IMG/VR virus record: IMGVR_UViG_3300009509_000013
Span: 1 to 64,000 of that record
DNA: 64,000 nt
Strand: one strand, 5' to 3'
From: a virus
The notes under the pieces were generated by a model. That model was given only the letters and a program-made list of their open reading frames with translations. It did no database searches and was not told the origin of the DNA. Positions 2 to 63,421 of this stretch are shown one piece after another. Numbering within the stretch: position 1 is the stretch's first letter; every line of letters begins with the position of its first letter. The translations under genes and the position numbers were made by a program.

Positions 2-508
2 TCAACCCGCCGGGTTTGCTTTGCCGTGAAGATAGCCGCGCTTCGCGTTGATCTCCGTCTTCCGCTTCATTTCTTCGAGCAAGTCGAAGCCGACCGTTTC
101 GGCAACCCGCCGACATTCTCGAAGCGCGATTTCGAGCGCCGTCCGAACGTCGTCGCGCTTTTCGTGTCGCCACGCTTCAACCGCCGCGCAAAGTTGCGAC
201 AAGATCGGCCAAACCAAACACTCGACCGCTTGAAAGCGCGTCGAACCTTTCCCGTATCCGTTCAACTTCCAATCGCCCGGCCAAATGCTTTCGAGCAAGT
301 GAAGCAACCGAATTGCCGTGTCAGCGATTTCAACTTCGAACGGATCTTCGCCGATCCCTTTCGCGCCTTGAACGCCTTCGTCGAGTTCCGTCACGGCGAG
401 CATGACCTTGACCGGAACGTCCGGGAAGCCCGGTCGAAGCCAACCGTTCGCGTCGTTCACTTCGTTGATTCGTTGCGCTAGTTCGTGCCAGTCTTGACGC
501 TCGTTCAT
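2..508 (-). CDS. MazG-like (all-alpha NTP pyrophosphohydrolase) protein
   Basis: MLAVTELDEGVQ...EVEIADTAIRL resembles the MazG ExxE...ExxD motif; typical phage C-terminus KTEINAKRGYLHGK; directly downstream of the helicase. Confidence 0.65.
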   Translation of the reverse strand: MNERQDWHELAQRINEVNDANGWLRPGFPDVPVKVMLAVTELDEGVQGAKGIGEDPFEVEIADTAIRLLHLLESIWPGDWKLNGYGKGSTRFQAVECLVWPILSQLCAAVEAWRHEKRDDVRTALEIALRECRRVAETVGFDLLEEMKRKTEINAKRGYLHGKANPAG

Positions 509-509
509 T

Positions 510-1901
510 TCAAAAACCTTCCCCTTCCCGTTCGGCTTGCCGAATCATCATTCGCGCTAGATCCGCGTCAAGCGGAATGATCTCTTTTGAATCTCCGTCG
601 CGATACTTCGCGACAAACAATTCGATCTTCCCGGTCTTGTATCGGGAAAATTCGTCTTCTTCTTTCACGTCTTCTTCTTCCGCGTCGTCGTCCGCGATCT
701 TCGTCGTCCGCGATTTCTTCTTCGGTTGATTCAACGTGATCACAAGGTCGGCGATTCGGCTTTTGTCGTATGATTCCGAAACGGCTTCCGCGCCGGCGGT
801 TCGCGTTTCCCATTCCCGCCCGGCTTGCGTTGCGCTCCAAACGACGACGCTTTCTTCTTCCGCGAGCGACTTCAATCCCCAATAGACGTTTGCTTGTTCA
901 AGCCGCGTCGATTCGAATTTGCCGATCCCGCGCATATGGTCGCCCGAATCCACAATGATAAAATCGACGTCCATTTCGGAACGGATTTCGTCAATCGTCG
1001 ACCGGAGAACGTTCACGTCGCAACGAAGCAACGGCATTGAAACGACCCGAAGCCGATTCGTGAACGTCTTTTTGAAACGTTGAAGCTTCGCTTCCATGTC
1101 GCGAAGCTCCGAAGGTGTGAAATCGAACGTCTTGAATTTCTTGTAAACGGTTTGAAACGCCCGCGCGTCGAGCCGGGTCGCGACTTGCTTCGCCGCCATT
1201 TCAAGCGAGAAATAGATTCCCCCGAAGCCGCGAGCCGCGCCGTTGAAGGCGAAGTTCGTCAACGTGATCGACTTCCCGCGCCCCGTCGTCCCGACAACAA
1301 GCCCAACTTCCCCCGGACGATTCCCGCCCGATTGAATTTCGTCAAGCCGCTTGATTCCGGTCGGGATCGCCTTCGTCAATTCCGGGTGTTCGCGTTCGTG
1401 TTTCCGCGTCGCTTGCCTTTCTTCGAATTGCTCGATCCATTTCACTTCGACATAAGACTTCGGCTTGAAGTCGTGCGTCGCGACCTTCCGCAATTCTTCG
1501 AACGCCCGGTCGACCTTCCCCTTTTCAAGCGCCGTCGCGCTCGATTCCATAGCCGTTTGAAGCGTGACCGCCCGAACGAATTCTTGAAGCTCCGCGAGCG
1601 CCGCCTTCGGCGTCTTCGGCTTCAAGTGCATAAGCCTTGAAGCAAGCTCCAAATAGGGTTGACGTTCGTCTTCGTCGTCGATTTCGCGCTTCAACCGCGC
1701 GAGAATGATCTTCGACGTGACGCGCTCGGAATAGTCGACCCAAGTTTTTTCGATCAAGCTCCAAATCCATCCGTGATGCTTTGTCGAAAAATGGTGTGAA
1801 CGGAGCAACCGGGAAGCGCTTCGAAGGTATTCGTCGGAGCGAAGACACGCCGCAAGAATTTGTTCTTCGAAGTCGACGTTGAAAATCGGTTGATCGTTCA
1901 T
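510..1901 (-). CDS. DnaB-like replicative helicase
   Basis: IPTGIKRLD, Walker A GTTGRGKS, FSLEM, Walker B IIVDSGD, SATQ, ADLVITL, VAKYRDG. Confidence 0.92.
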   Translation of the reverse strand: MNDQPIFNVDFEEQILAACLRSDEYLRSASRLLRSHHFSTKHHGWIWSLIEKTWVDYSERVTSKIILARLKREIDDEDERQPYLELASRLMHLKPKTPKAALAELQEFVRAVTLQTAMESSATALEKGKVDRAFEELRKVATHDFKPKSYVEVKWIEQFEERQATRKHEREHPELTKAIPTGIKRLDEIQSGGNRPGEVGLVVGTTGRGKSITLTNFAFNGAARGFGGIYFSLEMAAKQVATRLDARAFQTVYKKFKTFDFTPSELRDMEAKLQRFKKTFTNRLRVVSMPLLRCDVNVLRSTIDEIRSEMDVDFIIVDSGDHMRGIGKFESTRLEQANVYWGLKSLAEEESVVVWSATQAGREWETRTAGAEAVSESYDKSRIADLVITLNQPKKKSRTTKIADDDAEEEDVKEEDEFSRYKTGKIELFVAKYRDGDSKEIIPLDADLARMMIRQAEREGEGF

Positions 1902-1902
1902 G

Positions 1903-2613
1903 TCAAAATCCGAGATCTTGCTTCATGCGATCCCGGAGTTCTAGCCGGAAGTCGCCCGCGTCGAATTGAGCTTGCCGATATTTGCCGTCGAAGATCGAAG
2001 TCAACGTCGCTCCATAGACCTTTTTCAATTCTTCGCTTTCGGTGTTCGTCGCGATCAAGGTCGGAAGCGATTCGTCGAACCGCGTCTTCAAGATTCGTTC
2101 GATTTGAAGCCGAATCCAAGAATCCCCCTTTTTGAATTGTTCCTTTCCCATTTCGTCAATCGCGACGAAATCGCTTGTCAGATACCAATGAAGCCGGTCG
2201 GTCAATTCTTTGTCTTTGAAGCCGCGCTTCAATTCATAGTCGAGTTCGGGAAGCGACGTATAGAACGCCGTGAACCCGCGACGAATCACGCGCCCCAAAA
2301 CGTAAGAAATGAACATTGTCTTTCCGACGCCGTTGTCGCCAAGAAACAAAAGCCCGTAGCCTTTGACGCGAGCCCGCTTCAACTTCCGGCAATAGGGCAA
2401 GATCAATTCGGTGAAGATCTCGCAATTCCATTTGACGTCGGATTTCTTCGTGAACCAAAAGTCGCGCGGAATGCCGGCTTCATACGACGCGACCGAAATT
2501 TCGTGCTTCGTGTAGCAACCGCAATCGAGATTGTCGCCCTTGCATTCGCAAGCGTGAATCGTGTCCGCGCGAGACAAAAGGCGGAAGCGTTCAACTTCGT
2601 CTTCGGTTCTCAT
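1903..2613 (-). CDS. DnaC/IstB-like AAA+ helicase loader
   Basis: N-terminal Cys cluster, Walker A GDNGVGKT, Walker B AIDEMGKE, PTLIATN; immediately upstream of the helicase. Confidence 0.88.
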   Translation of the reverse strand: MRTEDEVERFRLLSRADTIHACECKGDNLDCGCYTKHEISVASYEAGIPRDFWFTKKSDVKWNCEIFTELILPYCRKLKRARVKGYGLLFLGDNGVGKTMFISYVLGRVIRRGFTAFYTSLPELDYELKRGFKDKELTDRLHWYLTSDFVAIDEMGKEQFKKGDSWIRLQIERILKTRFDESLPTLIATNTESEELKKVYGATLTSIFDGKYRQAQFDAGDFRLELRDRMKQDLGF

Positions 2614-3703
2614 GTTCCCCGCCTTTCTTCCGAAAAAGCTTGATCGCCCAATCGACCAACGGACGCAAGCGCGACGACACGAAAAGATCGCGACCGCCGG
2701 CGATTGCCTTCGCCGCGTTTTGAACCGTCATAAGTTCCCGGTCGCTCCAATCCCCGACGTCGTGACCCGCTTCAACCAATCCGCCGCGAAGCTCCGGGTG
2801 AAGCGCGTTCGTGTCCGCGTAACCGTGAAGCCCCGCCGCAACGTTGGAGCCTTTCGAATCTTCAATCTTCGCCGGGTCCGCCTTCGGCCCGTTCAACGAA
2901 TAGAACGAAGCCGCCGCGTCAATGTTCGCCGCCGCCGCGACGAAGTGAAGCGGAGCATAGCGAAGCCGGAATTTGTGAATGTGAGCCGCCCAATAGCGAA
3001 TCAATTGTTCCGGGGTGATTCCGCGTTCGAAGGCGAGAACCGCCCCTTGCGCCCCGAACTTTTCTTCGCTCCCGTGTAGCTTGAAATAGGGATCGTTGAT
3101 CTTGCGCCAACGGACATATTGACGAACGAACTCCGCGCCCATTCGCGCGACCAATTCCCGGCGGAACTTCGAGTTCGGCGACAAGTTCAAGAGTCGCCGC
3201 ATTTCCGCCTTGTCTTCCGGGGAAGGGGTGAAGATTTTCGACGACTTCAAATTTTCGAGATTCCCGATCTTGACCGCCCCGCGAGTTCGCCGCTTCTTCT
3301 TCGCGTCGGCTTTCCGTTTCTCCCGCGCCTTCGCGACCCGCTCGACCTTGACCTTCGCCCTTCCGGTTTTCTTTTCCGCTTTTTCCGTCTTGCCGTCTTC
3401 CCCGTCTATACGGCTTTGGTTCTCTAAAGACTTATGATCTATTACTCTATAAGAGGCGGTTCGCGATTCTTCCCCTTGAAGCGTCAAGAATTTCCGTTTC
3501 TTTCTTGGGTAACTTTTCGGAAATTCATTTTCGACACTCCCGCCCCGGTCAAAAATTCCGTTTTTTCCTTCAACCTTTCTTGCTCGTTTCGAACTCATTT
3601 TTCCCGAATCTCCGATCCCGGTCTTCGAGTTCTCGAAGAATTCGACCCGGTTCTTTCGGGAAAGTATTTCGAAACGAATGCTATTCTCCGACGTTTCATT
3701 CAT
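2591..3703 (-). CDS. putative replication initiator (basic, low-complexity N-terminal half)
   Basis: Position upstream of the loader and helicase; Lys/Arg-rich linker; AT-rich internal DNA. Called mainly by synteny. Confidence 0.45.
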   Translation of the reverse strand: MNETSENSIRFEILSRKNRVEFFENSKTGIGDSGKMSSKRARKVEGKNGIFDRGGSVENEFPKSYPRKKRKFLTLQGEESRTASYRVIDHKSLENQSRIDGEDGKTEKAEKKTGRAKVKVERVAKAREKRKADAKKKRRTRGAVKIGNLENLKSSKIFTPSPEDKAEMRRLLNLSPNSKFRRELVARMGAEFVRQYVRWRKINDPYFKLHGSEEKFGAQGAVLAFERGITPEQLIRYWAAHIHKFRLRYAPLHFVAAAANIDAAASFYSLNGPKADPAKIEDSKGSNVAAGLHGYADTNALHPELRGGLVEAGHDVGDWSDRELMTVQNAAKAIAGGRDLFVSSRLRPLVDWAIKLFRKKGGEHENRRRS

Positions 3704-3713
3704 TCCCCGCCTA

Positions 3714-4007
3714 TTATGAAAGCTTGATAAATCGATCCGTTCCTTTCAGGATCGCCCTACGTTTCAAGGTGATTTTTGCGCGTCTTCGGTCATTGTCCGC
3801 GCGCTCGACTCCGACGAAACCTTTTCGACGAAGCTCCCGAAAAACGTCGTTCGCGCTCGAAGTCGTTTTTCCAAGCGTCGACGCGATAGCCTTCCGCCCG
3901 GCGGAAAGCTCCGTTTCTGTCATGGCGTGAAGTCGAACCCAAACGGCGAACGCCGTCTTCGTCAATTCCCGATAGCCTTCCGGGATTGTGCAAGCGTCAA
4001 AAAGCAT
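3714..4007 (-). CDS. winged helix-turn-helix DNA-binding protein
   Basis: RKAIASTLGKTTSSANDVFRELRRKGFV is an HTH pattern; GGCGGGG RBS. Confidence 0.65.
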   Translation of the reverse strand: MLFDACTIPEGYRELTKTAFAVWVRLHAMTETELSAGRKAIASTLGKTTSSANDVFRELRRKGFVGVERADNDRRRAKITLKRRAILKGTDRFIKLS

Positions 4008-4093
4008 TTTCCCCGCCTTTGACGAAAGAGCGCGCCGGCGAGCCGCCGGCGGGGAACCAAGCGACGACGCCGACGCGCCCCTTCAAGGTTCCG

Positions 4094-4122
4094 GTTGTAC
4101 GGTTGCCCGTTCCCTTCGTCAA
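4094..4122 (-). promoter_or_regulatory. sigma70-like promoter for the replication operon
   Basis: TTGACG-N17-TACAAC on the minus strand, in the intergenic gap upstream of the HTH gene. Confidence 0.55.
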
Positions 4123-4124
4123 GT

Positions 4125-7750: not shown

Positions 7751-7799
7751 TTTCTAGCCTCCGTGACTAAAAGTTTGTGTTTCCTTCCGCTTCAACCGT

Positions 7800-8087
7800 T
7801 CAAGCGTGCTCCGACATGAAGCACGTTTGCGCCCGCGCCCAATGCCAAACAACCTTGTCGCCTTGCTTGCAATGCGGACAAACCGGATCGCCTTCGTTCG
7901 TTTCGACCCAAAACTTCCGGGGTCGTCGTTCCCCCGGCTTCCCCGGAATTTTGATCGTGCAACGCGAGCATTCCCCCTGATAGAGCCCATTCGCGACGAA
8001 CGAAGCGACTCCGCCGTTTTCGTCGTCCGGGATTCTCAAGACGTCGGGAACCCGGCGAAGCCGGCTTATGACGGGTTTCTTCGACAT
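7800..8087 (-). CDS. small zinc-ribbon protein
   Basis: CSRC and CPHC pairs. Confidence 0.5.
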   Translation of the reverse strand: MSKKPVISRLRRVPDVLRIPDDENGGVASFVANGLYQGECSRCTIKIPGKPGERRPRKFWVETNEGDPVCPHCKQGDKVVWHWARAQTCFMSEHA

Positions 8088-8113
8088 GCCCCTTCACTTC
8101 CCTTCCCCCGTGA

Positions 8114-13869: not shown

Positions 13870-13913
13870 TGCCTTTTGCTCCCTTGCGACTCGCGCGCCG
13901 TCACTTCAACCGC

Positions 13914-41916: not shown

Positions 41917-42471
41917 TCATGACTTCCGCTTCGACTTCTTCGTCGCCGCCTTCGTCTTCGGCGGCTTTGAACCGTTGCCGCCTTCGTGTTCGTCTTCGGC
42001 AAGATCGCTTGAAGCGGCGGAACGACCAAGATCGTCGCCGGCGTCTTCGTCTTCCATTCTTTGATAGCGTTCGTATTTTTGCGCTTCGCTTTTGAAGTGA
42101 CCGCCGATTGCGTTCGCCGCGCGTTCAAGCCCCTTCAATTGACCTTGCATGTCGATCAAATCGGTTTGGTTTTCACGCGCGATCCCCCGAACGATTTCGG
42201 TGATCCGCGTTACTTCCGAAATCCGAAGCTTCGCAAGCTCCGGTTCAAGTTCGCCCGCTTCAACCGCTTGGTTGATTGGCGTGCATTCCTGAAAGATTCG
42301 CTTCGAAATCACGTCCGCCGCTTGAACAATTCCCCGCTTTTGTTCAATGGCGTTTCGAACTTGAAGCATTTGAAGATCAATGTGTGTGACCGCCTCTTGA
42401 AGCCCTTCGAGCTTCGCGCGCGGAACGTCCGCCTTGATCTCCGACAACGTTTCGTTTTGTGTTAGGTTCAT
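41917..42471 (-). CDS. coiled-coil hypothetical protein
   Basis: Helical heptads with a basic tail; GGGGG RBS. Confidence 0.55.
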   Translation of the reverse strand: MNLTQNETLSEIKADVPRAKLEGLQEAVTHIDLQMLQVRNAIEQKRGIVQAADVISKRIFQECTPINQAVEAGELEPELAKLRISEVTRITEIVRGIARENQTDLIDMQGQLKGLERAANAIGGHFKSEAQKYERYQRMEDEDAGDDLGRSAASSDLAEDEHEGGNGSKPPKTKAATKKSKRKS

Positions 42472-42520
42472 GTTTCCCCCGCTTGTGCCGCCTATTCAAT
42501 CGGCCAATTGCGGTTGAAGG

Positions 42521-44077
42521 TTATTGTTGCAACGCAATCGAAATGAGCACGTCGCCGCTTTTCACGCCTTTCGGGAAATCGACTTTCAAGTCGCCCGCGC
42601 TTGCTGTCGTCCCGACATAGACGTCGTTTTTCACTGTGACATTCCCGCCGTATAGAAGCCGACCATTCAAGAAAACAAATGTGTCGACGTTCGCCGGCGT
42701 GTTCATGTCAATCGAATGCGTCGTCAAGTCAAACGTCGCCGCCGGAATGTTCACGCCTTGCGCGTAATTCGAGCCCGCGACAAAGATTTTCAGGTCAAGA
42801 TCGACGCCGCCCTTTTCCATTGCATATTTCAAAGCGTCGGAAATCGAAACGAACGCGCCGGAGCCTTCGAAAACCGTCTTCAAGGCGGAGATCGCGCCGG
42901 TCGTCGCGTCGTCGAGCGGAAGCGCCGTCGTTTCACGAACGGTTTGAAATTGCACGTTCCCGGCGGGAGCCGAAACTTCCGCCGCGCCGGTCGTCGCTCG
43001 AAGCTCGATTGCCGACGAATCGATCACGCCGACCGCCGTCTTTCCGACGTTGATCGCTTGATCTGTCGTGTCGAACGCCGCGCCTTGCGCGAAATTGTTG
43101 TCGGCGGCGTCGCAATCGAAAAGATCGACGTCGCCGGTCACTTGAACCAAATCGGTTCCGCCGTCGTTCCGCTCGATTTGAAAAAGAATGTTCCCGCCGC
43201 TTTTGCGGAAGATCCATTTCTTCGTGTCCGCGAGCCGAATGTCGACGTCGTTCGCGTCAACTTCGATATAGTGACCGCCGTCATAGGCGGAATCGAGCCC
43301 GCCAAAGCCCGCCGCGATTTGATCGGCTTCGGACAAATCGCCGCGAAGCGAATCTTCGACCATGCTCGCGAGATCGTTCCGAACCGTGTATGAATAGTTG
43401 ATCGACTTGCCGCCAATGTCCGCCGCCGGGCAAAGCTCCAAATCGTCGAACGTTGCATTTTGCCGAACGAACGTGATTTGACCGAGATCATTTCCGGTCA
43501 ATGCGAAGTTGTTTCCGTCCGTCGCCGCGCTTCCGACTTGAAGCAAACCCCAAACGCGCCGGTCGCTCGAAGTGATCGGGTCGCCGGTTGTCGCGTCGAA
43601 AATCGAAACAAGATTCTTCGGCTTCAATGGCGATTCGCCGGAAAGTTCCGTCAACGAAGCGGAGCCAACCGCGCCGCCCAATTGAGCGACGACCGCGCCC
43701 TTCGTCGCGACGTTGATCGCGATCACTTCGGAAGGCGGGTCGCCGGCGTTCGTCAACGTGACGTAAGCTTGCGCGCCCGGAACCGCAATGTCTTGAAGAT
43801 TCAACTTCCAACGAAGGAAATCTTTTTCTTCAAGCGCGGTTTGATTGTAAAGCGCTTTCAACGAAGCGTCGCCGCCGAAAACGGTTGCAATGTCGTCGTG
43901 CCAATTGCCCGCCGCGTCGCCGTGAATGATCCGCTTGACTTGCGAAAGAACGAACTCTTGAAAGTCCGCATAGTCGACGGACGACGCTTCGCCGCCCGCG
44001 ATTGCCGCCGCGCTTTTTTGATCGTCAAACGAATCCGGTTTGTAAAGTTGATCGAGTCTAACAAGCGAAACCGTCAT
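42521..44077 (-). CDS. probable abundant virion structural protein
   Basis: 518 aa, Gly/Ala/Asp/Thr-rich; GGAGG RBS; in the post-capsid block. Confidence 0.6.
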   Translation of the reverse strand: MTVSLVRLDQLYKPDSFDDQKSAAAIAGGEASSVDYADFQEFVLSQVKRIIHGDAAGNWHDDIATVFGGDASLKALYNQTALEEKDFLRWKLNLQDIAVPGAQAYVTLTNAGDPPSEVIAINVATKGAVVAQLGGAVGSASLTELSGESPLKPKNLVSIFDATTGDPITSSDRRVWGLLQVGSAATDGNNFALTGNDLGQITFVRQNATFDDLELCPAADIGGKSINYSYTVRNDLASMVEDSLRGDLSEADQIAAGFGGLDSAYDGGHYIEVDANDVDIRLADTKKWIFRKSGGNILFQIERNDGGTDLVQVTGDVDLFDCDAADNNFAQGAAFDTTDQAINVGKTAVGVIDSSAIELRATTGAAEVSAPAGNVQFQTVRETTALPLDDATTGAISALKTVFEGSGAFVSISDALKYAMEKGGVDLDLKIFVAGSNYAQGVNIPAATFDLTTHSIDMNTPANVDTFVFLNGRLLYGGNVTVKNDVYVGTTASAGDLKVDFPKGVKSGDVLISIALQQ

Positions 44078-49862: not shown

Positions 49863-51932
49863 CTAGAACGCCGCGTTCACGTTGCGTTCAAGTTGCTTTT
49901 GAAATTCTTCGGTGAATGAAGCCGCTTCGCTTTCAGTCATTCCGGCGATCATTCTCGCCGGCGGCTTCGTGCTTCGCGCGAAGTGTTTCGGATAGTCTTG
50001 ACCGCGCATGACCGTTGCCCGCGTCGACCGCATTTTGATTGAAGCGGCTTCGAGAATTTCGTCGAGTTCCTTTTCGGCGATTCGTTCAACGTCGATTCCG
50101 GCTTTCGCGATTGCGGTTTCGGTTGCGGCGGCGATCTCTTTTTTGACCGTCTTGATTTCGTATTCATACGCGCCATAACGCCGCCCGGTCTTTGCGTCGA
50201 CAATGCGCGCCGGATTGACGCCCCATTTTCGGATCATGATCTGTCGACTCAAGTGTTCACAAGTCGCTTCTTCGAGCGCAAGCGCCGCGCCTTTCAATTG
50301 GTTCAATGCAATCGGCGCGTGTGAATGAATCGTTTCGTGAACCAAAACCGAAAACGCTTCGTTCGCCGCGTCCGTTCGCGCGCCCTTTGCGAAAAGCGCC
50401 GCTTGTTTTTGAACGTCGCGCGTGATCCAAATCGCGCCATTCTCGACGAACTTCCCGTTCGCGCGCCCCATGTTTTGTTTGACTTGCGCGATCAAGAAAT
50501 TGAATTTGTCGCGCTTGTCTCGCGTCGCGGTCGCCGTTTCGACGTTGCTCCAAATGATCGACCGCTCGATCATTCCGTGTTCCGCCATAAGCGCGTTCAA
50601 TTCTTTGCGGATCGCCGCTTGTTGCGCCGGCGAATATTGCTTGAATGTCGCCGTTACGCCGGGAATCCCTTCGCGCTTCGCCGCGACCGCCTTTTCAAGC
50701 GCCTTTTGATTGAACGCCTTCGTCGGCGTGACGTTCGTCTTCGGAAGATCCGGGAAGATTGTCTTCGCCGCTTGCGCCGCTTGCGACGCTTGAATCGCAG
50801 AAGCCGCAACGCCCGCCGCGCGCCCGATGTTCGTCACGTTGCGCGAAATTTCAATCGGGTCGGAAAGGTTTTCATAGGTCGTCGATTCTTCCGAAACGTC
50901 GACCGTGCAACGGCAACGAAAGTGAAACGGCGGGGAAGAAAAGCCGGCGTCGGCGAGCGCCTTCGCGTCTTTCGGACCTTGCGGACCTTTGCCGCTTGTG
51001 ACATTCGCGAGCTTCCCCGGCGATAGCCAAGGGTGAGCTTTCCGCATGTCTTCGGGAGTCGTCGCTTCGAGATCGCGAACCATTTGATCGACGCCTTGAC
51101 GAACCGAAAAGATCTTTCCGTTCATTGTGTCGCAAACCGGACACGTTCGTTCGTCGCTCGGATTCACGATTTCGTAATAGGTGACGCCAATCGACGCGAA
51201 GCTTCGCATTTGACCTTGTGCGCGCGCGACCGTCGCCGCGTTCGCGACAAGCCCTTCGAAATATTGCCGATCCGTTCCGGTGAATCCCTTCGGTGTCGAA
51301 AAGATTCCGAGCGCGTCGCGCGTTCGCTCCGCCATGACCTTTCCCGCCGCGCGTCCGACCGCTCCGGTTTCCATTGCTTCGCGCGTCGTCTTTTCGATTG
51401 TTTGCGCGACGTTTTTGTCGAAGTGCTCCCCGATCCAAAGCGTTTGTTGATCTTTGATCGCGCGAAGCGCTCCGTCGTCTACCACGTCGAACGACGGCAA
51501 AACTTGCGCCTTGAAGCCCGCCGCCTTTTTCACTTCCGCCGTTGCGTTCGGCGTATCGAATTGAAGCGACGCCTTCGTTTGTCGCGTTGCTTTCTTGTGA
51601 CCGGCGATCCGCGCGAGCCGATAGACTTCCGCGATCTCCCGGTTGAAGCGCGGCGTGACCGCCTTCGCCCAAGGTCGCATGATTCGCTTGATCGTCGCCG
51701 CGATTTGAGCCGACGAAGCCCCGCGCTCCGCCATGCTCCCCGCTTTCTCCGCCGCTTTTTTCGAACGGTCGCGCCATTCCTTCAAGAGATATTCGCGAAG
51801 ACGTGTTTCGATCTTCGCGATTTGCGCGACTTCCGAAAGCCGAAGCGCCTTCGCGATCAAGACGTCGGAAGCGATCAACCCGTCATAGAGCCGACCGACG
51901 TCAAGCCTTTGTGTCGCCGCCGTTGAAGCCAA
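49863..51932 (-). CDS. MuF/SPP1 gp7 head morphogenesis protein with C-terminal HExxH metallopeptidase-like extension
   Basis: DERTCPVC and PPFHFRCRC MuF motifs; VLVHETIHSH...LEEATCE in the extension. Confidence 0.82.
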   Translation of the reverse strand: MASTAATQRLDVGRLYDGLIASDVLIAKALRLSEVAQIAKIETRLREYLLKEWRDRSKKAAEKAGSMAERGASSAQIAATIKRIMRPWAKAVTPRFNREIAEVYRLARIAGHKKATRQTKASLQFDTPNATAEVKKAAGFKAQVLPSFDVVDDGALRAIKDQQTLWIGEHFDKNVAQTIEKTTREAMETGAVGRAAGKVMAERTRDALGIFSTPKGFTGTDRQYFEGLVANAATVARAQGQMRSFASIGVTYYEIVNPSDERTCPVCDTMNGKIFSVRQGVDQMVRDLEATTPEDMRKAHPWLSPGKLANVTSGKGPQGPKDAKALADAGFSSPPFHFRCRCTVDVSEESTTYENLSDPIEISRNVTNIGRAAGVAASAIQASQAAQAAKTIFPDLPKTNVTPTKAFNQKALEKAVAAKREGIPGVTATFKQYSPAQQAAIRKELNALMAEHGMIERSIIWSNVETATATRDKRDKFNFLIAQVKQNMGRANGKFVENGAIWITRDVQKQAALFAKGARTDAANEAFSVLVHETIHSHAPIALNQLKGAALALEEATCEHLSRQIMIRKWGVNPARIVDAKTGRRYGAYEYEIKTVKKEIAAATETAIAKAGIDVERIAEKELDEILEAASIKMRSTRATVMRGQDYPKHFARSTKPPARMIAGMTESEAASFTEEFQKQLERNVNAAF

Positions 51933-53751: not shown

Positions 53752-55221
53752 TTACATAATGCCCGGTTCTTCGCGCCGTCGCTTTTTGCGTTTCAACTTG
53801 CTCGCCGTGATCGCCAAGTCGAGCGCGTCGAAGCCGTCTTTGTAGCGAAAATTAGGAAACAAAACCAACAAGTCGATCAAGTCGGTCAAGTTCTTTCGGA
53901 AGAAAACGCGCTTGTCTTCAAACATTGGCGACAATTTCCAAGCGCGCGTCACCTTGTCTTTGTCCGTGTGAATCGCCTTCAACCGAAGATTTTTGTCGCC
54001 GTCTTTCAAGTGCTGATATTGCGCGGCTTGGTAAGCGTTCGTTTCAATGCCGCAACGGATCGGGTCGTGCCTTCGATAGAACTCTTTGATCTTTCGCGTT
54101 TGATCGTTGAAGCGAAGGTGTCCTTCGAAGTAATCGATCACATAATGATCTTCGGTCTTCGTGTCGATTCCGACGACCGCAATCGCGAACTTGTCGGCTT
54201 TCTCGCTTTCCGAAATCGCCAAGTCAACGCCCATGAACACGCGAAGCCCGCCGGGGATCTCCGAATCGTCGACCTTTTGACAGTCGTCATATTGGAAGAT
54301 CTCGCCCTTCATTGCTTCGGTGTCGCATTGGTATTGAGCGTTGAAAATGATCGTTCCCGACTTGCGCTTCTTTTCCTTGAACCACTTCGGCGGATATTTG
54401 TCCGGCCAAGGCGAACGCCCGTCTTCGTCAAGCGCGGGAATGATTTGATGATGATCGGCGAGTTCGTTCGCGATCAAATGCCCATAGAGATCGTCGAAGT
54501 GATAGCGCGTTCCTAGCCTATGGTGTTCCCCTCTATGCGGAACCGACTTGTCCGGCGGTTCAAGGCAAGGGTCGAGCGTTTGATAATACCATTGACGAAC
54601 GCGGTCGCGCATGTATTTCGTCCGCGTGTTGTCTTCGTCAACCAAGTCGTCGGAAAGGATCACGTCGTAATGTTTGCCGACGACGGCGGCTTCAACGCCG
54701 ATGCAAGTGATCGTTGATTCTTTCGAATACTTCGTTCGGGGAGCGACTTCGATTTCGCGGTTGTCCCATTTTCCGACCTTGTGCGGATCGTAATACTCGC
54801 CGAAAAGTTCCGCGAAGCGTTCGTTCCCTTCAAGGTGTCCTTTGATTTCTTTTAGGAACGCTTCGCTTTGCGCGCTCGTTTTGCTCGCGATCAAAATCCG
54901 AATGTTCGGATCTTTCGCGAGCAAATGAAGCGACTTCGTGATCGTGCAAACGGTCGACTTCCCCGCGCCACGAAACACAAGTTGAAGGTTGTCCGGGTGA
55001 ATGAATTGATAGCGAAGCAACGCCAAATGAAACGGTTCGATTTGATAGTCGAGAACCGCCGTCGCGAGAATGTCGATCCGGTTGTGATCGATGATCATTC
55101 GCCGGAGCCATTCGTTCCCCATTGCCCGATAGTGTCGGGCGAGATCTAGCAATTGCCCGCGATCCGCTTCTTCAATCGCTTTCGGCGAGCCTTGCAAAAT
55201 TGGGAAAACGGAACTCGACAT
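53752..55221 (-). CDS. terminase large subunit
   Basis: FRGAGKST, DDLVD, GTRYHFDDLYG, FNAQYQ, GVDLAIS, DGFDAL. Confidence 0.93.
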   Translation of the reverse strand: MSSSVFPILQGSPKAIEEADRGQLLDLARHYRAMGNEWLRRMIIDHNRIDILATAVLDYQIEPFHLALLRYQFIHPDNLQLVFRGAGKSTVCTITKSLHLLAKDPNIRILIASKTSAQSEAFLKEIKGHLEGNERFAELFGEYYDPHKVGKWDNREIEVAPRTKYSKESTITCIGVEAAVVGKHYDVILSDDLVDEDNTRTKYMRDRVRQWYYQTLDPCLEPPDKSVPHRGEHHRLGTRYHFDDLYGHLIANELADHHQIIPALDEDGRSPWPDKYPPKWFKEKKRKSGTIIFNAQYQCDTEAMKGEIFQYDDCQKVDDSEIPGGLRVFMGVDLAISESEKADKFAIAVVGIDTKTEDHYVIDYFEGHLRFNDQTRKIKEFYRRHDPIRCGIETNAYQAAQYQHLKDGDKNLRLKAIHTDKDKVTRAWKLSPMFEDKRVFFRKNLTDLIDLLVLFPNFRYKDGFDALDLAITASKLKRKKRRREEPGIM

Positions 55222-55803: not shown

Positions 55804-56169
55804 TTACCGCTCCCAATCTTCGGACGTGAAACCGTTTGAACCCAACCGTTCCCGCGCCCAAGTGAAAACGACTTCGGGGTCGAAGTCGCGACAAGAGAAC
55901 ACGTCAAGTTTGACTTCACGGCGAAGCGGCCAAGCGTGAATTGCAACGTGTGACGTCGACAAAATCGCGCAAGCCGTCACGCCGCCTTCGTCTTCGAACG
56001 GTTCCCTTCCGAGCTTTTCAATTTCTAGCGGAACCGAAACGCTCAAAGTTCCGAGCGTCGTCATTCCGAGCGCTTCAACCAAATCGCAAACGGCGATCTT
56101 CATTCCGGCTTCGTCGTTCACTTTCGCCGGGTCGCAATCGCCGTCAAAAACAAGGTGTCTCCCGCTCAT
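55804..56169 (-). CDS. speD: S-adenosylmethionine decarboxylase family proenzyme
   Basis: GRHLVFD, GGVT..ILSTSHVAIHAWP, LDVFSC (pyruvoyl-dependent AdoMetDC signatures). Confidence 0.85.
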   Translation of the reverse strand: MSGRHLVFDGDCDPAKVNDEAGMKIAVCDLVEALGMTTLGTLSVSVPLEIEKLGREPFEDEGGVTACAILSTSHVAIHAWPLRREVKLDVFSCRDFDPEVVFTWARERLGSNGFTSEDWER

Positions 56170-57895: not shown

Positions 57896-57921
57896 GCCGG
57901 CGGGGAGAATCCCCCGCCGGC
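57896..57921 (-). terminator. GC-rich hairpin at the early/late boundary
   Basis: 10-bp stem GCCGGCGGGG/CCCCGCCGGC. Confidence 0.55.
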
Positions 57922-57951
57922 AACGGAACGGAAAGGAACGGAGATCAAAAA

Positions 57952-58671
57952 CTAGGCGACGCGCAAAAGCGAACGTTCAACGCCCTTCGATTGTGCCTTC
58001 GCGCGCCTTCGCGCGTCAAGCTTTTTCAAGCAACGTTCGGCTTTTGTTTCGTATTCGTCGCGCCGCTTTTCTGTCGGCGAACAACCCGCCGCCGCCAACC
58101 AATGCCCGGCGGCTTCCGAATAGCGAAGCTCCGCTTCGGCGTCGCGCGCGAGCTTCGCCCAATACGCCGGCGAACGTTGCTCCGCTTCGGAGCGCCGCTT
58201 TCGTTCGTAATAGTCAACCTTCGCTTGCCATTTCGACAATTGAGTTCGAAGCCGCTTGATCTTCGTCGTCAATTCTTTGACCTTCGCCTTCGCCTTGCGT
58301 TCCCGACCTTCCGACGCGAGCGCCGCGCGCTCCGCCTTCGACTTCGGTTGAAGCGGAACCTTCCGGCGAAGCTCGATCCCGTCGACTTCAACCGCCATGA
58401 TCCAAGGGTTTTCGGGAGCCGCGTCGCGACCGCCGGCGACGAACGCGCAACCCCAAGCGAGCGCTTGCGCGACCTTCGTCACGTCGACCGCGCCCTTCGG
58501 GATTCTCAGGCGAATTGACGACCGCCCCGCCCTAACTGTCGGGTGACTTTGCCGCGCGCCCGTGACCGTCAACGTCGCGCGCGTGACGCCCCATTCGCGA
58601 GCGATCCGCGTGAACAAGCTTCGGAGATCGCGCCCGTTCAAGTCGGTCTTGTTCTCGATTGCGAGCTTCAT
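57952..58671 (-). CDS. hypothetical early protein (basic, coiled coil)
   Basis: AGGCGGGG RBS; ATGA overlap with the receiver gene. Confidence 0.6.
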   Translation of the reverse strand: MKLAIENKTDLNGRDLRSLFTRIAREWGVTRATLTVTGARQSHPTVRAGRSSIRLRIPKGAVDVTKVAQALAWGCAFVAGGRDAAPENPWIMAVEVDGIELRRKVPLQPKSKAERAALASEGRERKAKAKVKELTTKIKRLRTQLSKWQAKVDYYERKRRSEAEQRSPAYWAKLARDAEAELRYSEAAGHWLAAAGCSPTEKRRDEYETKAERCLKKLDARRRAKAQSKGVERSLLRVA

Positions 58672-59006
58672 TTTTCCCCGCCTTTCGGTTGAAGCGCGGC
58701 TTCAATCGCCGCGCGAAGTGTCGTTCGACTTGCCGGCTTGCTCAAAATGGCGACCGCGCCAATCGGTTGAAGCGCCATTGACCCGGAGTGAATGACAACC
58801 GGAACCGGCGATTCTTCGAGAACGCGAGCCCCGCCGCCGTTCGGCATGACCCAATCGGAAACGACGACCGCCGCTTCGGAGTAAAGCGCCGCCGCTTCAA
58901 CCGGGTCGCTCGCCGTCACGACGTCGAAGCCTTCCCGCCGAAGCTCGCGCTCGACCGCCTTCAAGATCTCCGGCGTGTCGTCGACAATCAAAATCTTCGT
59001 GTTCAT
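58668..59006 (-). CDS. single-domain response regulator (CheY-like receiver)
   Basis: KILIVDD, VSDWVMP (phospho-acceptor Asp), IHSG, LSKP. Confidence 0.88.
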   Translation of the reverse strand: MNTKILIVDDTPEILKAVERELRREGFDVVTASDPVEAAALYSEAAVVVSDWVMPNGGGARVLEESPVPVVIHSGSMALQPIGAVAILSKPASRTTLRAAIEAALQPKGGEK

Positions 59007-59062
59007 ATTCCCCGCCTTTCGGGGCGAAGCTCCGGGCTTTCGCCCGGAGCCCGCCGCCCTGT

Positions 59063-59947: not shown

Positions 59948-59982
59948 TGTCCGATCCTTTCGTTTCGTGTTCCGTTGTTCCG

Positions 59983-60021
59983 TTCTATACTTAGTGTCTC
60001 AAATTTCGGTTGAAGTGTCAA
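59983..60021 (-). promoter_or_regulatory. repeated early promoter, copy 1
   Basis: TTGACA CTTCAACCGAAATTTGA GACACT AAGTATAGAA. Confidence 0.7.
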
Positions 60022-60071
60022 GCCTAATTTCGAAAAAAATCACCTAAAAATTCCCCTGAAATATTGCAGTT

Positions 60072-60248
60072 TTAGACCTTCCAAGGCGGCTTGACCCGCT
60101 CGACCTTGCCGGCTTTCGTGTTCCGGGAACGGTTGTTTTTGGAGCGCGAAAAAAGCGAGCGCTCGAAGCCGTCGTTCCGGTCGGCGTAAGAACCAAGCTC
60201 GACCGAAAGCGCGCGACGAAGTGAAAGCGTTGAAGCGTTGCAAGTCAT
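60072..60248 (-). CDS. 58-aa hypothetical protein (not in the ORF track)
   Basis: GGAG RBS then MTCNASTLSLRR...PPWKV*. Confidence 0.35.
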   Translation of the reverse strand: MTCNASTLSLRRALSVELGSYADRNDGFERSLFSRSKNNRSRNTKAGKVERVKPPWKV

Positions 60249-60311
60249 GGTTCCGATCTCCGTTCCTTCCGTTGCCGGCGGAGCCCCGCGCCCCGCCGGA
60301 GTTCGGTCGAC

Positions 60312-60608
60312 CTATCGGTCGACCTTCGGGCAAAGGTCGCCTTGTGCGACCGCCGCCCGGAGCCAAGCCCGCGCGAAAGCTTTCGCCTTCGCGACGGACG
60401 AAAAGCCGCGCCCGCCGTCGATTGCTTCCCAAATGTGACCGAGCATTCCGAGCCGGTCGACGCGATAGTCGCCTTCGCGACCGTCGATTCGGAACGCGAG
60501 CGAATGAACCCGCGAGCCGATCTTCGCGGTTGCGGTTGCGCCATAAATGCGGGAGTCGACTTTTTTGAACGTCATGGTTGAAGCTCCGTTGTTTGTCGTG
60601 TTCTTCAT
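60312..60608 (-). CDS. hypothetical early protein
   Basis: Starts MKNT directly after promoter copy 2; alternative SD-led start at MTFKK. Confidence 0.6.
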   Translation of the reverse strand: MKNTTNNGASTMTFKKVDSRIYGATATAKIGSRVHSLAFRIDGREGDYRVDRLGMLGHIWEAIDGGRGFSSVAKAKAFARAWLRAAVAQGDLCPKVDR

Positions 60609-60646
60609 TCTATACTTAGTGTCTCATGAATCGGTTGAAGTGTCAA
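60608..60646 (-). promoter_or_regulatory. repeated early promoter, copy 2
   Basis: TTGACA CTTCAACCGATTCATGA GACACT AAGTATAGAATG. Confidence 0.7.
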
Positions 60647-60734
60647 CCCCTAATTTCAAAAAAAATGATCTTTTTTCTGCTAGGAAAAATTGAAGTTTTG
60701 GCGGGGAGTTCGGGAGCGCGAAGCGCTTCAACCG

Positions 60735-60962
60735 TCAATAAAGAATCGTGTCGAAGCCCAACGAATCGCGCCGCCGGGGAAGGTCGCGCTTCGGAACGCC
60801 GGCTTCCGCCGCGCAAAACCCGACAAGTTCCGGCGAATCCGTGACGATCCCGACGCAAGTCTTCCCGAACATTCCGCGCCCGGAATAGTCGCGATAAACG
60901 CGCGCGCTTGCGCCTTCGTCTTCCATGCGTTCAACGATTGCTTCCGCTTGTTCAAGTGTCAT
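60735..60962 (-). CDS. hypothetical early protein
   Basis: GGAG RBS; YSGRGMFGKTCVG motif. Confidence 0.6.
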   Translation of the reverse strand: MTLEQAEAIVERMEDEGASARVYRDYSGRGMFGKTCVGIVTDSPELVGFCAAEAGVPKRDLPRRRDSLGFDTILY

Positions 60963-61034
60963 TGTTCCGATCTCCGTCAATGAACGACGGAGCCCGCCGG
61001 CGACCGCCGCCGGCGAAGCTCCGCGCGTTCGTGT

Positions 61035-61235
61035 TCACTTGCAAAACCGGGGAGCCGCGCCCCAACGTTCCGACGTGACGCGATCCGCTTCTTTGACGAT
61101 CAAAAGATCGGCGTCCGCGCGATAGCCCATGACGACCGCCTTCACGCCGAAATTTTCGACGACGTGACCGAAGGCGACCCAACGCCCCGACGCGATCTTG
61201 ACCGGCTCCATTCTGTCGTTTTCGAATTGTCGCAT
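61035..61235 (-). CDS. hypothetical early protein
   Basis: GGAGCGGAG RBS before MRQFEND. Confidence 0.5.
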   Translation of the reverse strand: MRQFENDRMEPVKIASGRWVAFGHVVENFGVKAVVMGYRADADLLIVKEADRVTSERWGAAPRFCK

Positions 61236-61300
61236 TTGCTCCGCTCCGTTTCGGTTGAAGGGGAGCGCCGGGGTCGAGCCCCGCGCGCTCCGCGTTTCTG

Positions 61301-61615
61301 TTACTTGTTCACCATGCGATAGATCGTTTCGTTCAAGTTCTCGACGAAGACGCCGTTCGCCGACTCGACGACTTTCATTTCGTAGGTTCGGCGATTGAAG
61401 CGAACGAACTCGACGTCGTAAAGGTCGAGCGCTCGGTCGAGCTTGACGACGATCTTCGTCAACTTCGAACGACCGACGACGAAGTGAAGACCGTCTTCGC
61501 CCGCGACCGCTTGACGCGCTCCGCAAGCCATTTTTGTTCCGACCGTGATTTGACTCCAAATGATTTGACCCGCGTTCATGGTTTCCGTTCCTTTCGTTGT
61601 GTCCGTGTTCTTCAT
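61301..61615 (-). CDS. hypothetical early protein
   Basis: Starts MKNT after promoter copy 3; DLYDVEF motif. Confidence 0.65.
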   Translation of the reverse strand: MKNTDTTKGTETMNAGQIIWSQITVGTKMACGARQAVAGEDGLHFVVGRSKLTKIVVKLDRALDLYDVEFVRFNRRTYEMKVVESANGVFVENLNETIYRMVNK

Positions 61616-61703
61616 TCTATACTTAGTGTCTCATAAAAAGCGGAGCCCGTCAAGCAAAAACGACAAGAAAAATTGAAAAAACGACATGAATTTTTCAAAT
61701 ATT
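61615..61703 (-). promoter_or_regulatory. repeated early promoter, copy 3, with AT-rich upstream tract
   Basis: TTGACG-N17-GACACT AAGTATAGAATG; 56 bp identical to copy 5. Confidence 0.7.
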
Positions 61704-61734
61704 AGAGCCAAAACAGAGCCAAAACAGAGCCAAA
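61704..61734 (+). repeat. tandem 11-bp repeat AGAGCCAAAAC, about 3 copies
   Basis: Read directly from the sequence. Confidence 0.85.
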
Positions 61735-61893
61735 TTTCGTCAATAATTACGCCTAGTTGTGAACGACGCCCTAGAATGCCCTAGAATCGACGCAACGAAG
61801 CCCGCCCTTGTCCGCGCCCGTGCGACCCCTGAAACGCGCTTGACGCCCCGGAATTCGCGCCCCTATGCCCAAAATTGAGCCCTTCCGCCGGCG

Positions 61894-62037
61894 ATTCAAC
61901 CGTTCGGGGAAGCGACGCTTCAACCGTTGCGCCCCGCTTCAACCGTTCGGGAGCCGTCGCTTCAACCGAAAGTGATCCAAGGGATCGAAGCCCGATCCGG
62001 TCGGCTTGCGCCGACCGGCGAGCGCTCGCTTCAACCG
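61894..62037 (+). repeat. cluster of five (C)TTCAACCG motifs
   Basis: Copies at 61894 (ATTCAACCG variant), 61918, 61937, 61960 and 62029. Confidence 0.8.
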
Positions 62038-62393
62038 TGATACGCGGCGACGACCGAAACCTTCCCGGCGATCTCGCGTTTGAACTCCGCGACCATTTCG
62101 GGATCGAACGACCGGAACCGCGACCGGGAAGTCGACACGCCGTTCGCGCTTGTCGTCGACTCGCCGAAGATCGAAGCCGGGGTCGGTTGGTTCCAACCGT
62201 CAACGATCAAAATGAACGGAGCGAAGCCGCCGACGATCTCCGACTCGCTCCGCTTGCGCTTCGCGACGAAGCGAACGAACGGCGCGGCGTCGTATTGCGC
62301 CCAAGTCTTGCGCCCGTGTTCGATCAACTTCGCTTCAATCGCGATCACGTTTCCGAAAAGCTCGCTCTTTGTGTAAATCGTGACCTTTCGCAT
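62031..62393 (-). CDS. hypothetical early protein
   Basis: AAAGGG RBS; genome-typical codon usage. Confidence 0.6.
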   Translation of the reverse strand: MRKVTIYTKSELFGNVIAIEAKLIEHGRKTWAQYDAAPFVRFVAKRKRSESEIVGGFAPFILIVDGWNQPTPASIFGESTTSANGVSTSRSRFRSFDPEMVAEFKREIAGKVSVVAAYHG

Positions 62394-62406
62394 TGTTCCG
62401 ACCCTT

Positions 62407-62535
62407 TCAAGCCTTGCGGCTTATGGTTGCGCGCTTCGCGGTTCCGGTCGTCGGGCGAACTTGGCAAGCGTTCCCGGTTGCCAGCGTTGCCAGAATGACC
62501 ATGATCGCGAATGCTTTGTTTGCCGTGTTCTTCAT
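62407..62535 (-). CDS. 42-aa putative lipopeptide (not in the ORF track)
   Basis: MKNTANKAFAIMVILATLATGNACQVRPTTGTAKRATISRKA*, directly after promoter copy 4. Confidence 0.45.
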   Translation of the reverse strand: MKNTANKAFAIMVILATLATGNACQVRPTTGTAKRATISRKA

Positions 62536-62573
62536 TCTATACTTAGTGTCTCATAAATCGGTTGAAGCGTCAA
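62535..62573 (-). promoter_or_regulatory. repeated early promoter, copy 4
   Basis: TTGACG CTTCAACCGATTTATGA GACACT AAGTATAGAATG. Confidence 0.7.
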
Positions 62574-62649
62574 GCAAAAAACGCAAGAAAATCTGATTTT
62601 TTTCGGGTTATTTTTCGGATATTTAGACGAAGGCGGCGATTTTTCGACG

Positions 62650-62678
62650 AAAACCGCCGGGAATCGAACCCGGCGGCT
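62650..62678 (-). terminator. intrinsic terminator
   Basis: GCCGCCGGG-TTCGATT-CCCGGCGG followed by TTTT, after gene 62691-63305. Confidence 0.65.
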
Positions 62679-62690
62679 TGCGTTTCCGAC

Positions 62691-63305
62691 CTAGTAAAGC
62701 GCCTTGACCGCTTCGAGCAACCGGCGAGCCGTCACGACGTCGCCCGCGTCGATTGCCGCTTCAACGCGCGCGTGAAGCAAGTTCCGAGCGTCGGCGATTG
62801 CGTCGTTCGTCATGGGGATCGAAAGAACGTTCGCGGCTTCGGCGACCGGCTCCGCTTCAACCGTCGCGGCTTCGACGATTGCTTCGGCGGAGATCACAAC
62901 CGCCGGAGCCGCGCGGAGCGCTTCAAGTTGCGCGTCGGCGGCTTCGCGAACCGAAACATGCTTATAGAAATCAACGTCGAAATAGTCGGTCATTGAATCG
63001 GAGTCGTCGCGATTGTAGGCTTCGACGATCCCGGCGATCTTGTCTTCGGTTTCCTTCCAAGCGTCGAGCGCTTCCCAATCCCGCCCATATTCGTCGTTAG
63101 TGTCGCGAAGCGTGACGAATTGAACCGGAGCTTCTTTGACGTCGACGGAAAGGCTTTGGCCCATGCTGTAACGGGAAATCCGAACGCCGAACTTCCAACC
63201 CTTGCCGAAAGCGGCTTTCAAGTCGGCGCGAACTTTCTTCGCGACGTCTTTCAAGTCTTGCCCGTTCTCGAATTTGCTTCCAATGTATCCGCGTCCGTAA
63301 CTCAT
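62691..63305 (-). CDS. LPD29-like (polyvalent-protein associated) domain protein
   Basis: VRADLKAAF..KFGVR..YSMG.SL.V and YNRDDSDSMTDYFDVDFY; start MSYGRG. Confidence 0.6.
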   Translation of the reverse strand: MSYGRGYIGSKFENGQDLKDVAKKVRADLKAAFGKGWKFGVRISRYSMGQSLSVDVKEAPVQFVTLRDTNDEYGRDWEALDAWKETEDKIAGIVEAYNRDDSDSMTDYFDVDFYKHVSVREAADAQLEALRAAPAVVISAEAIVEAATVEAEPVAEAANVLSIPMTNDAIADARNLLHARVEAAIDAGDVVTARRLLEAVKALY

Positions 63306-63332
63306 GATCTCCGCCTTTCTTGTTGTGTTCCG

Positions 63333-63421
63333 TTCTATACTCTTTGTCTCATAAATCGGTTGAAGCGTCAAGCAAAAACGACAAGAAAAATTGAAAAAAC
63401 GACATGAATTTTTCAAATATT
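63333..63421 (-). promoter_or_regulatory. repeated early promoter, copy 5, with AT-rich upstream tract
   Basis: TTGACG CTTCAACCGATTTATGA GACAAA GAGTATAGAA. Confidence 0.65.

Follow-up and report, generated by a model that had tools for sequence, protein, structure and literature searches.

A nine-nucleotide word repeated across the genome of an uncultured contractile-tailed phage is selected at the DNA level and may be the recognition site of a DNA-reading protein

Why should a viral genome carry the same nine letters dozens of times, in both directions and for the most part within its genes? This question is raised by IMG/VR record IMGVR_UViG_3300009509_000013, a single virus record of 74,285 bp whose first 64,000 bases form the window analysed here. 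The 9-mer CTTCAACCG (hereafter the word) is present in the window as 66 exact copies, 37 on the + strand and 29 on the - strand, spanning 175..63365; three copies beyond the window (genome 68952, 69275 and 69393) raise the whole-genome total to 69, or 0.93 per kb. An earlier note on this DNA, made from the letters alone, had reported at least 60 exact copies on both strands, and every coordinate that it gave as an example proved to be correct, as did its two figures for uneven density (18 copies in 57.6–63.4 kb and 2 in 9–20 kb, where the tail fibres are encoded). The copies lie a mean of 1,018 bp apart with a coefficient of variation of 1.35, with gaps of 4–6 kb in the tail-fibre and capsid regions and across most of 64–74 kb. 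Dinucleotide-preserving shuffles of the window contained 0.86 +/- 1.0 copies, with 5 the largest number obtained. As detailed below, the word is a real and exact signal selected at the DNA level: neither frame nor orientation restricts it, no other word in the genome is an extreme outlier, and it is specific to this lineage.

Such an excess could be a compositional by-product, whereby avoidance of CAG/CTG together with strong codon bias inflates a few permitted words and CTTCAACCG is merely the commonest of these; we consider this highly improbable. The genome is written in a restricted vocabulary: CAG/CTG stands at 0.05x its expectation (1.9 per kb versus 20–48 per kb in relatives), GTA/TAC at 0.18x, TAA/TTA at 0.21x and CTA/TAG at 0.24x, TTAA occurs only 4 times and GTAC 12 times, and GAGG/CCTC (0.045x), GTGG/CCAC (0.066x) and GATG/CATC (0.09x) are depleted 10–20-fold, with GAA/TTC and CGA/TCG enriched 2.5-fold. 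Through this vocabulary, composition contributes several-fold to the expected number of copies, which rises from 0.6 (order 0) and 1.0 (order 1) in Markov models to 6–8 at order 2–3 (8.2 at order 3). Once the copies of the word itself are masked from training, though, orders 3–6 expect just 6.2–9.0 copies against the 69 seen, and shuffling synonymous codons with the proteins fixed gave 17.5 +/- 3.1 copies (largest 29 across 200 shuffles), a figure that includes 7 non-coding copies untouched by the shuffle. A shuffle made deliberately too strict, in that it retains all trinucleotides together with every codon-centred 7-mer, settles at 30–38 copies; the survival of ~35 copies here is a point in favour of a by-product, but this shuffle preserves most of a 9-mer by construction and still never reaches 69. 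In a scan of all 8- to 11-mers only CTTCAACCG and its extensions are extreme, with the next unrelated word at z ~10, and one-mismatch neighbours made of the same permitted triplets are not enriched. Also against composition stand the 5.5-fold shift of codon choice towards the word in compatible peptides and the enrichment of those peptides, both described below, and the behaviour of genome 63–74 kb: CAG/CTG is as depleted there as elsewhere (18 CWG sites in 11.3 kb), yet this segment is almost without copies, which in addition indicates that word density is not simply the time a segment has spent in the lineage. The possibility raised earlier that the enrichment would vanish as a consequence of CAG/CTG avoidance is therefore not borne out: it persists under both the masked Markov models and the codon shuffle.

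Selection is also seen in how the word is fitted into proteins. Nearly all convincing genes lie on the - strand, with long + strand open reading frames (ORFs) resembling antisense shadows; 62 of the 69 copies are inside called genes, ~59 of the window copies fall within - strand genes, four are promoter copies and other non-coding copies number ~8. Five of the six reading frames are used, and the sixth would give a TGA stop. Across all genes, 62 of the 80 peptide contexts able to carry the word do so (78%), whereas codon usage predicts 11.3; the word is present in all nine L-Q-P contexts, and the test proposed in the earlier note, whether Val is GTT more often in A-V-E-A contexts than elsewhere, has a positive outcome in the [APST]-V-E-[ADEGV] contexts, 29 of 38 of which carry the word (7.1 expected). 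The compatible contexts are themselves ~2.4x over-represented, with 80 found and ~33 expected from amino-acid composition, so that the proteins too have been bent to fit the word. The copy in the large terminase gene (TerL, 53977..53985, +) provides an example: it encodes R422-L423-K424, and since R422 and L423 are invariant among homologues and K424 is present in 7 of 12 sequences, this copy was fitted by synonymous codon choice alone. Genome-wide, 40 copies are on the + strand and 29 on the - strand (29 sense and 40 antisense relative to transcription), a ratio that by our own arithmetic holds no significant bias; the local imbalances of 12:1 in 0–14 kb and 5:12 in 14–37 kb follow protein composition, with replication proteins offering R-L-K and V-E-A frames and structural proteins the A-S-T frame.

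The word is also exact. Its 5' side carries a semi-conserved CG (C in 52 of 69 copies, G in 47 of 69), the other flanking positions hold no information, and the 11-mer CGCTTCAACCG is present in 42 copies versus 1.4 expected (z ~35); the word is thus best written (CG)CTTCAACCG. Single-mismatch variants remain at background, with observed/expected ratios (O/E) of 0.4–1.9, which points to recognition that is near all-or-none; the sole exception is CTTCAACCA, found 10 times versus 1.8 expected (O/E 5.7). Reading of a pseudo-palindrome (CG-S-TT-S-AA-S-CG) by a dimer was considered and dropped, as the palindromic neighbour CTTCAAGCG is not enriched (19 versus 12.3 expected).

All-or-none specificity is typical of restriction-modification or nicking enzymes, and the copies could accordingly be targets of an enzyme acting on phage DNA (a nickase, a modification enzyme or a recombinase), in which case they would show where virion DNA is nicked, modified or recombined. 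Some phage genomes, such as those of T5-like phages, are nicked site-specifically at a consensus, and CTTCAACCA, as a decay variant of the terminal CG, could speculatively reflect deamination of methylated CpG. On the other hand, known phage nick sites are on one strand only, there is no obvious reason for selection to saturate such sites, and no methyltransferase, nickase or HNH gene was recognised among the ~50 proteins scanned against Pfam and PHROGs. Nicks in T5 and BF23 are mentioned in one paper (PMC10644984). Taken together, we judge an enzyme target to be very unlikely.

PHROG matches to tail sheath, baseplate wedge, tape measure, portal and large terminase, together with a DnaB-type helicase and a second helicase, identify it as a contractile-tailed phage; across several studies, its DNA is present in metagenomes of marine sediment and in some from soil and mangrove. 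It belongs to a large clade of uncultured phages in which the closest large terminase is 76% identical: TerL homologues at 70–76% identity exist, and a metagenome scan gave relatives at 68–70%, with the relatives compared here all being more distant than the closest. Neither the 14 IMG/VR loci with a portal 43–63% identical nor the two metagenome loci with a terminase 68–70% identical contain a dispersed abundant word: they hold 0–2 copies of CTTCAACCG and normal CAG/CTG, and four whole relatives of 29–116 kb contain 0, 2, 0 and 2 copies. Because these relatives are without the word, the system is of recent origin, and it emerged together with the drastic loss of other short words, which is likewise recent, given the normal CAG/CTG content of the relatives with a terminase 68–70% identical.

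The purge of GAGG seems to extend to Shine-Dalgarno sequences, as judged from ribosome-binding sites upstream of many - strand starts (for example 2613, 4007, 58671 and 59006), which are mostly AAAGGCGGGGAA or GGGGA, with GGAGG in few genes. A second abundant word was also observed in this genome, having the palindromic core CGCCGGCG(A) (for example around TCGCCGGCGA); its 9-mer CGCCGGCGA occurs in 49 copies, ~2-fold over the order-3 expectation, and is largely compositional. An abundant 10-mer in two relatives with a GC content of 38%, L004 and L005, was examined as an analogous word and rejected, being a local 15-bp tandem array (L004 5367–5742; L005 795–1020) of more than 20 units, each GCAAATCGGC or GCAAATTGGC plus 5 nt, that might be either a repeat within a coding sequence or a field of iterons. 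Likewise rejected as the same phenomenon were L260 and L294 (IMG/VR 3300019839_000015 and 3300017569_000111), with 5–7 copies of the word: these represent an unrelated viral genome with a GC content of 59–61%, normal CAG content and at least 5 copies of a ~60-bp one-strand element built of phased 9-bp units, CTTCAACCG first, then CTTCAATCG, TTTCAGTCG, TTTCTCTCG and ATTAAATCG; this repeated element may have a regulatory role of its own.

What, then, reads the word? Two non-coding settings bear on this question, the first being a set of predicted early promoters. The genome contains six paralogous promoter-like blocks of ~60 bp each, directed towards lower coordinates, in which an A/T-rich upstream stretch is followed by TTGAC[AG], a 9-nt block and, after another ~5 nt, TGAGACACTAAGTATAGAA or a sequence close to it. 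The earlier note had placed the word directly 3' of the -35 hexamer in four of five such promoters, and this holds for the window; with the sixth paralogue included, it is four of six in the genome. In the predicted promoter P60007 (59983..60021, -), TTGACA at 60016–60021 is followed by the word at 60007–60015, 5 nt and TGAGACACTAAGTATAGAA at 59983–60001; P60632 (60608..60646, -; word 60632–60640) has the same layout, while P62559 (62535..62573, -; word 62559–62567) and P63357 (63333..63371, -; word 63357–63365) have TTGACG as the hexamer. The paralogous P61640 (61615..61653, -) does not carry the word and has GGCTCCGCT as the block after TTGACG (61639–61647), and the sixth paralogue, at genome ~64.43 kb, has CGAACGCGG. 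In P61640 and P63357 the upstream halves are identical and the same core is present on both sides, with the difference falling exactly in the 9-nt block, which thus behaves like a cassette that can be exchanged. A spacer of 17 nt would make GACACT, next to an upstream TG, the -10 hexamer, and the weakness of this putative -10 explains why a sigma-70 consensus scan did not flag the blocks. The word is not distributed as a sigma-70 element would be, at a fixed position and direction to -35 and -10 elements at most copies, since only 4 of the 69 copies are found in a promoter context.

The second setting is an array in 61894..62037 (+), where the earlier note had seen the word form an intergenic cluster: four exact copies at 61918, 61937, 61960 and 62029 and one one-mismatch copy, ATTCAACCG, at 61894 are all in the same direction, with start-to-start spacings of 24, 19, 23 and 69 bp and repeat units reaching 17–20 nt. 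The ~390-bp spacer that holds the array, and extends as far as P61640, is most likely non-coding, judging by the stop of a 120-aa gene (phrog_24737, E 1e-20) at 62031 and by the translation of the sole ORF across the array, which is shadow-like and rich in Arg, Ser and Gly. A perfect hairpin with a 9-bp stem and a 4-nt loop (61997..62018) lies between the first and second array copies, and three copies of AGAGCCAAA(AC) with 11-bp spacing (61704..61734, +) stand between the array and the A/T-rich stretch with which P61640 opens upstream, so that the spacer has an origin-like or operator-like look. An RNA explanation found no match in Rfam and tRNA searches of the array region. Elsewhere, one copy is intergenic at 42511..42519 (-), between genes 42521–44077 and 41917–42471, another at 13904..13912 (+) is ~35 nt upstream of the start of a 1322-aa fibre gene, and a third at 7790..7798 (+) is located at a gene junction, at the end of ORF 7792–8097.

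An origin-like array invites the explanation that CTTCAACCG is the iteron core of a replication origin at 61.9–62.0 kb bound by a phage initiator, with the dispersed copies acting as secondary loading, priming or titration sites. Such an origin would suit the same-direction repeats at about two helical turns (19–24 bp), the 17–20-nt units in non-coding DNA and the adjoining hairpin, triple 11-bp-phased repeat and A/T-rich stretch, and copies are available at about one per 2 kb on each strand. The replication module comprises an SF2 helicase, a small winged-helix protein, an unannotated 370-aa protein (2591–3703), a DnaC/IstB-like loader and DnaB, with an ATP-dependent ligase at genome 71264–72163 and no recognisable polymerase or primase; the 370-aa protein, which adjoins DnaB and its loader, gave no informative match in Pfam, PHROGs or a protein atlas, however, and the array is 55 kb from the replication genes. 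Furthermore, none of the known origin systems requires ~60 exact copies within genes, the promoter-spacer copies are left unexplained, and cumulative GC skew has no inflection at the array, because it follows the single coding strand. We therefore regard a replication element as improbable.

Our preferred answer, to which we assign a probability of roughly 40%, is that CTTCAACCG is the recognition word of a DNA-reading protein of very high sequence specificity, most likely one that the phage itself encodes and makes early, and that the number of copies is itself under selection. The earlier note had proposed a binding site for a phage or host protein; what stands of this is that the word is a DNA-level selected signal, for which a machine-read site is a reasonable class in view of the null models, the 78% use of coding opportunities and the status of the word as single outlier, while the protein nature of the reader, its origin in the phage and the effect of its binding are our inference. 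At four of the six early promoters the reader would occupy the 9 bp after the -35 hexamer and block or modulate RNA polymerase; the array, with its four exact copies and one degenerate copy, would be a high-occupancy cluster; and the ~60 intragenic copies, placed in either direction where proteins allow, would extend occupancy over the genome as a self-mark, a coat or a sink, with a benefit that would grow with each added site. Orientation-free use (40:29) fits a duplex-binding site, the same position and direction in four of six paralogous promoters and the 18 copies within 5.8 kb of the early region resemble the placement of an operator, and the 0–2 copies in relatives fit a fast-evolving pair of phage-encoded protein and site.

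The only annotated small DNA-binding candidate of the phage is a 97-aa protein (3714..4007, -) with sub-threshold matches to MarR and winged-helix families (MarR E 1.2e-3, below the curated cut-off). It has two homologues among 5.8 billion clustered proteins, both 85–86% identical and one of them named in its source as a MarR-family regulator; the 86% identical homologue is encoded on a 43-kb contig. This lineage restriction parallels that of CTTCAACCG, which is only suggestive. The AlphaFold model of the protein is uninformative (pLDDT 55), and a viral scan with the winged-helix protein returned a single match that was spurious, partial and contained zero copies of the word. The wider search, through Pfam and PHROGs (~50 ORFs), the protein atlas (scores ~0.8, at chance level) and PDB sequences (nothing significant), identified no binder; beyond the window, a 351-aa HTH protein is encoded at genome 72160–73215.

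Several points weigh against a phage-encoded reader. The searches yielded no binder, these same four sources gave no DNA-binding annotation for the other early proteins, and the one candidate is held back by family matches below threshold and by a model that tells us little. An ordinary regulator needs neither ~60 intragenic sites nor near-saturation of coding opportunities, the promoter copies could stem from one ancestral event multiplied via promoter duplication, and a promoter spacer and an intergenic array are the cheapest spots for a word that is selected for some other reason. The uneven coverage, with its 4–6 kb gaps and a nearly empty 64–74 kb, is poorly suited to a uniform coat or mark.

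A close rival of the phage-encoded reader is a self tag of the Chi or uptake-sequence type that is read by the host: a host enzyme, for example a helicase-nuclease of the RecBCD/AddAB type, would stop degrading or start repairing at the word, copies in both directions would rescue any break, such as a restriction cut, within 1–2 kb, and the promoter and array copies would be incidental. The word carries the signature of words read by host machines, being exact, dense (0.93 per kb), frame-opportunistic and accompanied by a ~2.4x excess of the peptides that it encodes, and near-saturated opportunities imply a benefit per site. The co-occurring lineage-specific purge (CAG/CTG at 0.05x, TTAA, GTAC, GAGG, GATG) suggests heavy restriction pressure. 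Pfam and PHROGs recognised no DNA polymerase, primase, recombinase, integrase, repressor or anti-RecBCD gene among the ~50 proteins scanned, with many ORFs unannotated; a lack of recombinase and anti-RecBCD genes would accord with a host tag, as phages such as LLS are known to accumulate host Chi and to be without their own recombination module (PMC12315714). Against this stands the orientation of the copies: Chi-rich phages are strongly strand-biased with Chi clustered towards one end, as opposed to the 40:29 seen here, although balance could be understood if rescue were directed at restriction cuts, which leave two ends. Known Chi sequences are 5–8 nt long, and not 9–11 as here. The identical position of the word in four promoters is left unexplained except by duplication, and insensitive scans revealed no bacterial genome with dispersed enrichment among the matches listed and no other phage with the dispersed word. 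In these, paired 10-mers in 185,579 species genomes gave, among the matches listed, only local same-strand coding tandem repeats from unrelated taxa, and direct and inverted word pairs in viral contigs gave isolated pairs only, with no dispersed carrier; for a 16-mer spanning the promoter -35 and the word, the 98 viral matches were single and at chance level, with none enriched. On balance we find a host-read tag doubtful.

A formulation that spans both types of reader is that the word is a virus-evolved identity word, that is, a dense, orientation-free and exact tag, of a type seen until now only on bacterial chromosomes (uptake sequences, Chi), by which a phage or host machine tells this genome apart from all other DNA, and this we hold to be rather unlikely. 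The tag would, for example, spare the genome from a nuclease, rescue it after restriction cuts or load a protective protein, and positive marking by the word would have evolved together with negative marking through the purge of CAG/CTG and other words. What weight is left beyond the explanations named here goes to something that we have not thought of.

In a strain 3–6% divergent (run X15), 762 variants were found, of which those listed fall in 63171–63777 except for one at 50802; the copy at 63357, the only one covered by the listed variants, is unchanged, with the nearest listed variant (63354) outside the word. In the same strain 60705–60750 is replaced by 155 other letters, and the non-coding copy at 60726..60734 (+) is not conserved there. 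In three runs, each from a different study, there are contigs that connect 60264 straight to 63325 and omit ~3.06 kb with the array and three promoters; as the matching sides are just 21–22 nt, this junction hints only weakly at variation of the early region between strains. Two further genes were noted: an S-adenosylmethionine decarboxylase domain (PF02675, E 3e-19; 55804–56169, -) is encoded two genes upstream of the large terminase, and a stand-alone response-regulator receiver domain (PF00072, E 3e-11) is encoded at 58668–59006 (-) by a small gene that contains three copies of CTTCAACCG and has a 4-bp overlap with the start of a 239-aa ORF without a family match.

Dense exact words are among the clearest footprints of a DNA-reading machine, and have so far been tied to bacterial competence (uptake sequences), RecBCD-type repair (Chi) and, among phages, polar repressor sites (stoperators) or strand-biased Chi. 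Should the reader of CTTCAACCG be a phage protein, the word would represent a novel form of occupancy or self-marking on the scale of a whole genome, based on a protein-DNA pair that is highly specific and could perhaps be reused; should it be a host enzyme, the word would reveal a self-recognition signal of the host and a new phage counter-strategy. Either way, it provides a sharp and testable handle on an uncultured phage-host pair.

The earlier note had pointed to stoperators and Chi as precedents, and neither analogy holds in its classic form. Stoperators of Cluster A mycobacteriophages resemble the word in being numerous asymmetric sites dispersed through the genome of a phage, some of which, as a class, overlap early promoters; the counterpart here is the position in the spacer 3' of the -35 hexamer in four of six predicted paralogous promoters. 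There are more than 20 of these 13-mers, located in promoters and short intergenic spaces with an orientation that follows transcription and is needed for function (PMC9283540, PMC6550527), and their repressor, a monomer with two DNA-binding domains, shows that an asymmetric word can be read (PMC9283540). The word fails this comparison both in location (62 of 69 copies intragenic) and in orientation (29 sense, 40 antisense). Moreover, stoperators show some degeneracy and belong to temperate phages with an immunity repressor (a helix-turn-helix plus a stoperator domain), whereas the phage studied here has an exact word in mixed orientation, 90% of copies intragenic and no integrase or repressor recognised among the proteins scanned.

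Chi-rich phages (LLS, MD8 and related lambdoid phages) share with this genome an exact short word that has accumulated far above chance, inside genes, for a DNA-processing machine. In LLS there are 23 Chi, one per 1.86 kb, with 20 of 23 in one orientation, and in MD8 the split is 32 versus 0; strand bias amounts to 87–100%, with clustering at one end (PMC12315714). Chi in such phages is thus nearly all in one orientation, is clustered towards the open end and is the known Chi of the host, whereas the word is split 40:29, without the strand bias expected of classic Chi, is 9–11 nt long and is not known as the Chi of any host. Iterons of plasmid and phage origins are matched by the array at 61894–62037, with its same-direction repeats about two helical turns apart beside an A/T-rich stretch, but iterons are confined to the origin, and here 65 copies lie outside the array, including ~60 intragenic copies for which there is no known explanation in such systems.

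The closest statistical match to CTTCAACCG is the bacterial uptake sequence. The uptake words of Pasteurellaceae and Neisseriaceae (the USS and DUS, respectively) are exact, asymmetric and 9–12 nt long, occur about once per kb in both orientations and are accommodated in several frames via codon choice, and the core of the word with its weaker 5' extension adds to this likeness; we take CTTCAACCG to be unrelated to the USS and DUS consensus sequences themselves. The encoded peptides are over-represented 2.4x here, and uptake sequences have approximately doubled their encoded tripeptides (PMC2817400). The differences lie in the carrier and in the setting: uptake sequences reside on the chromosomes of bacteria, where the species' own competence machinery reads them, whereas the word is carried by a virus, has four copies at a fixed promoter position and has no dispersed bacterial carrier among the matches listed. 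This phage has the signature of an uptake sequence together with a promoter cassette and an array.

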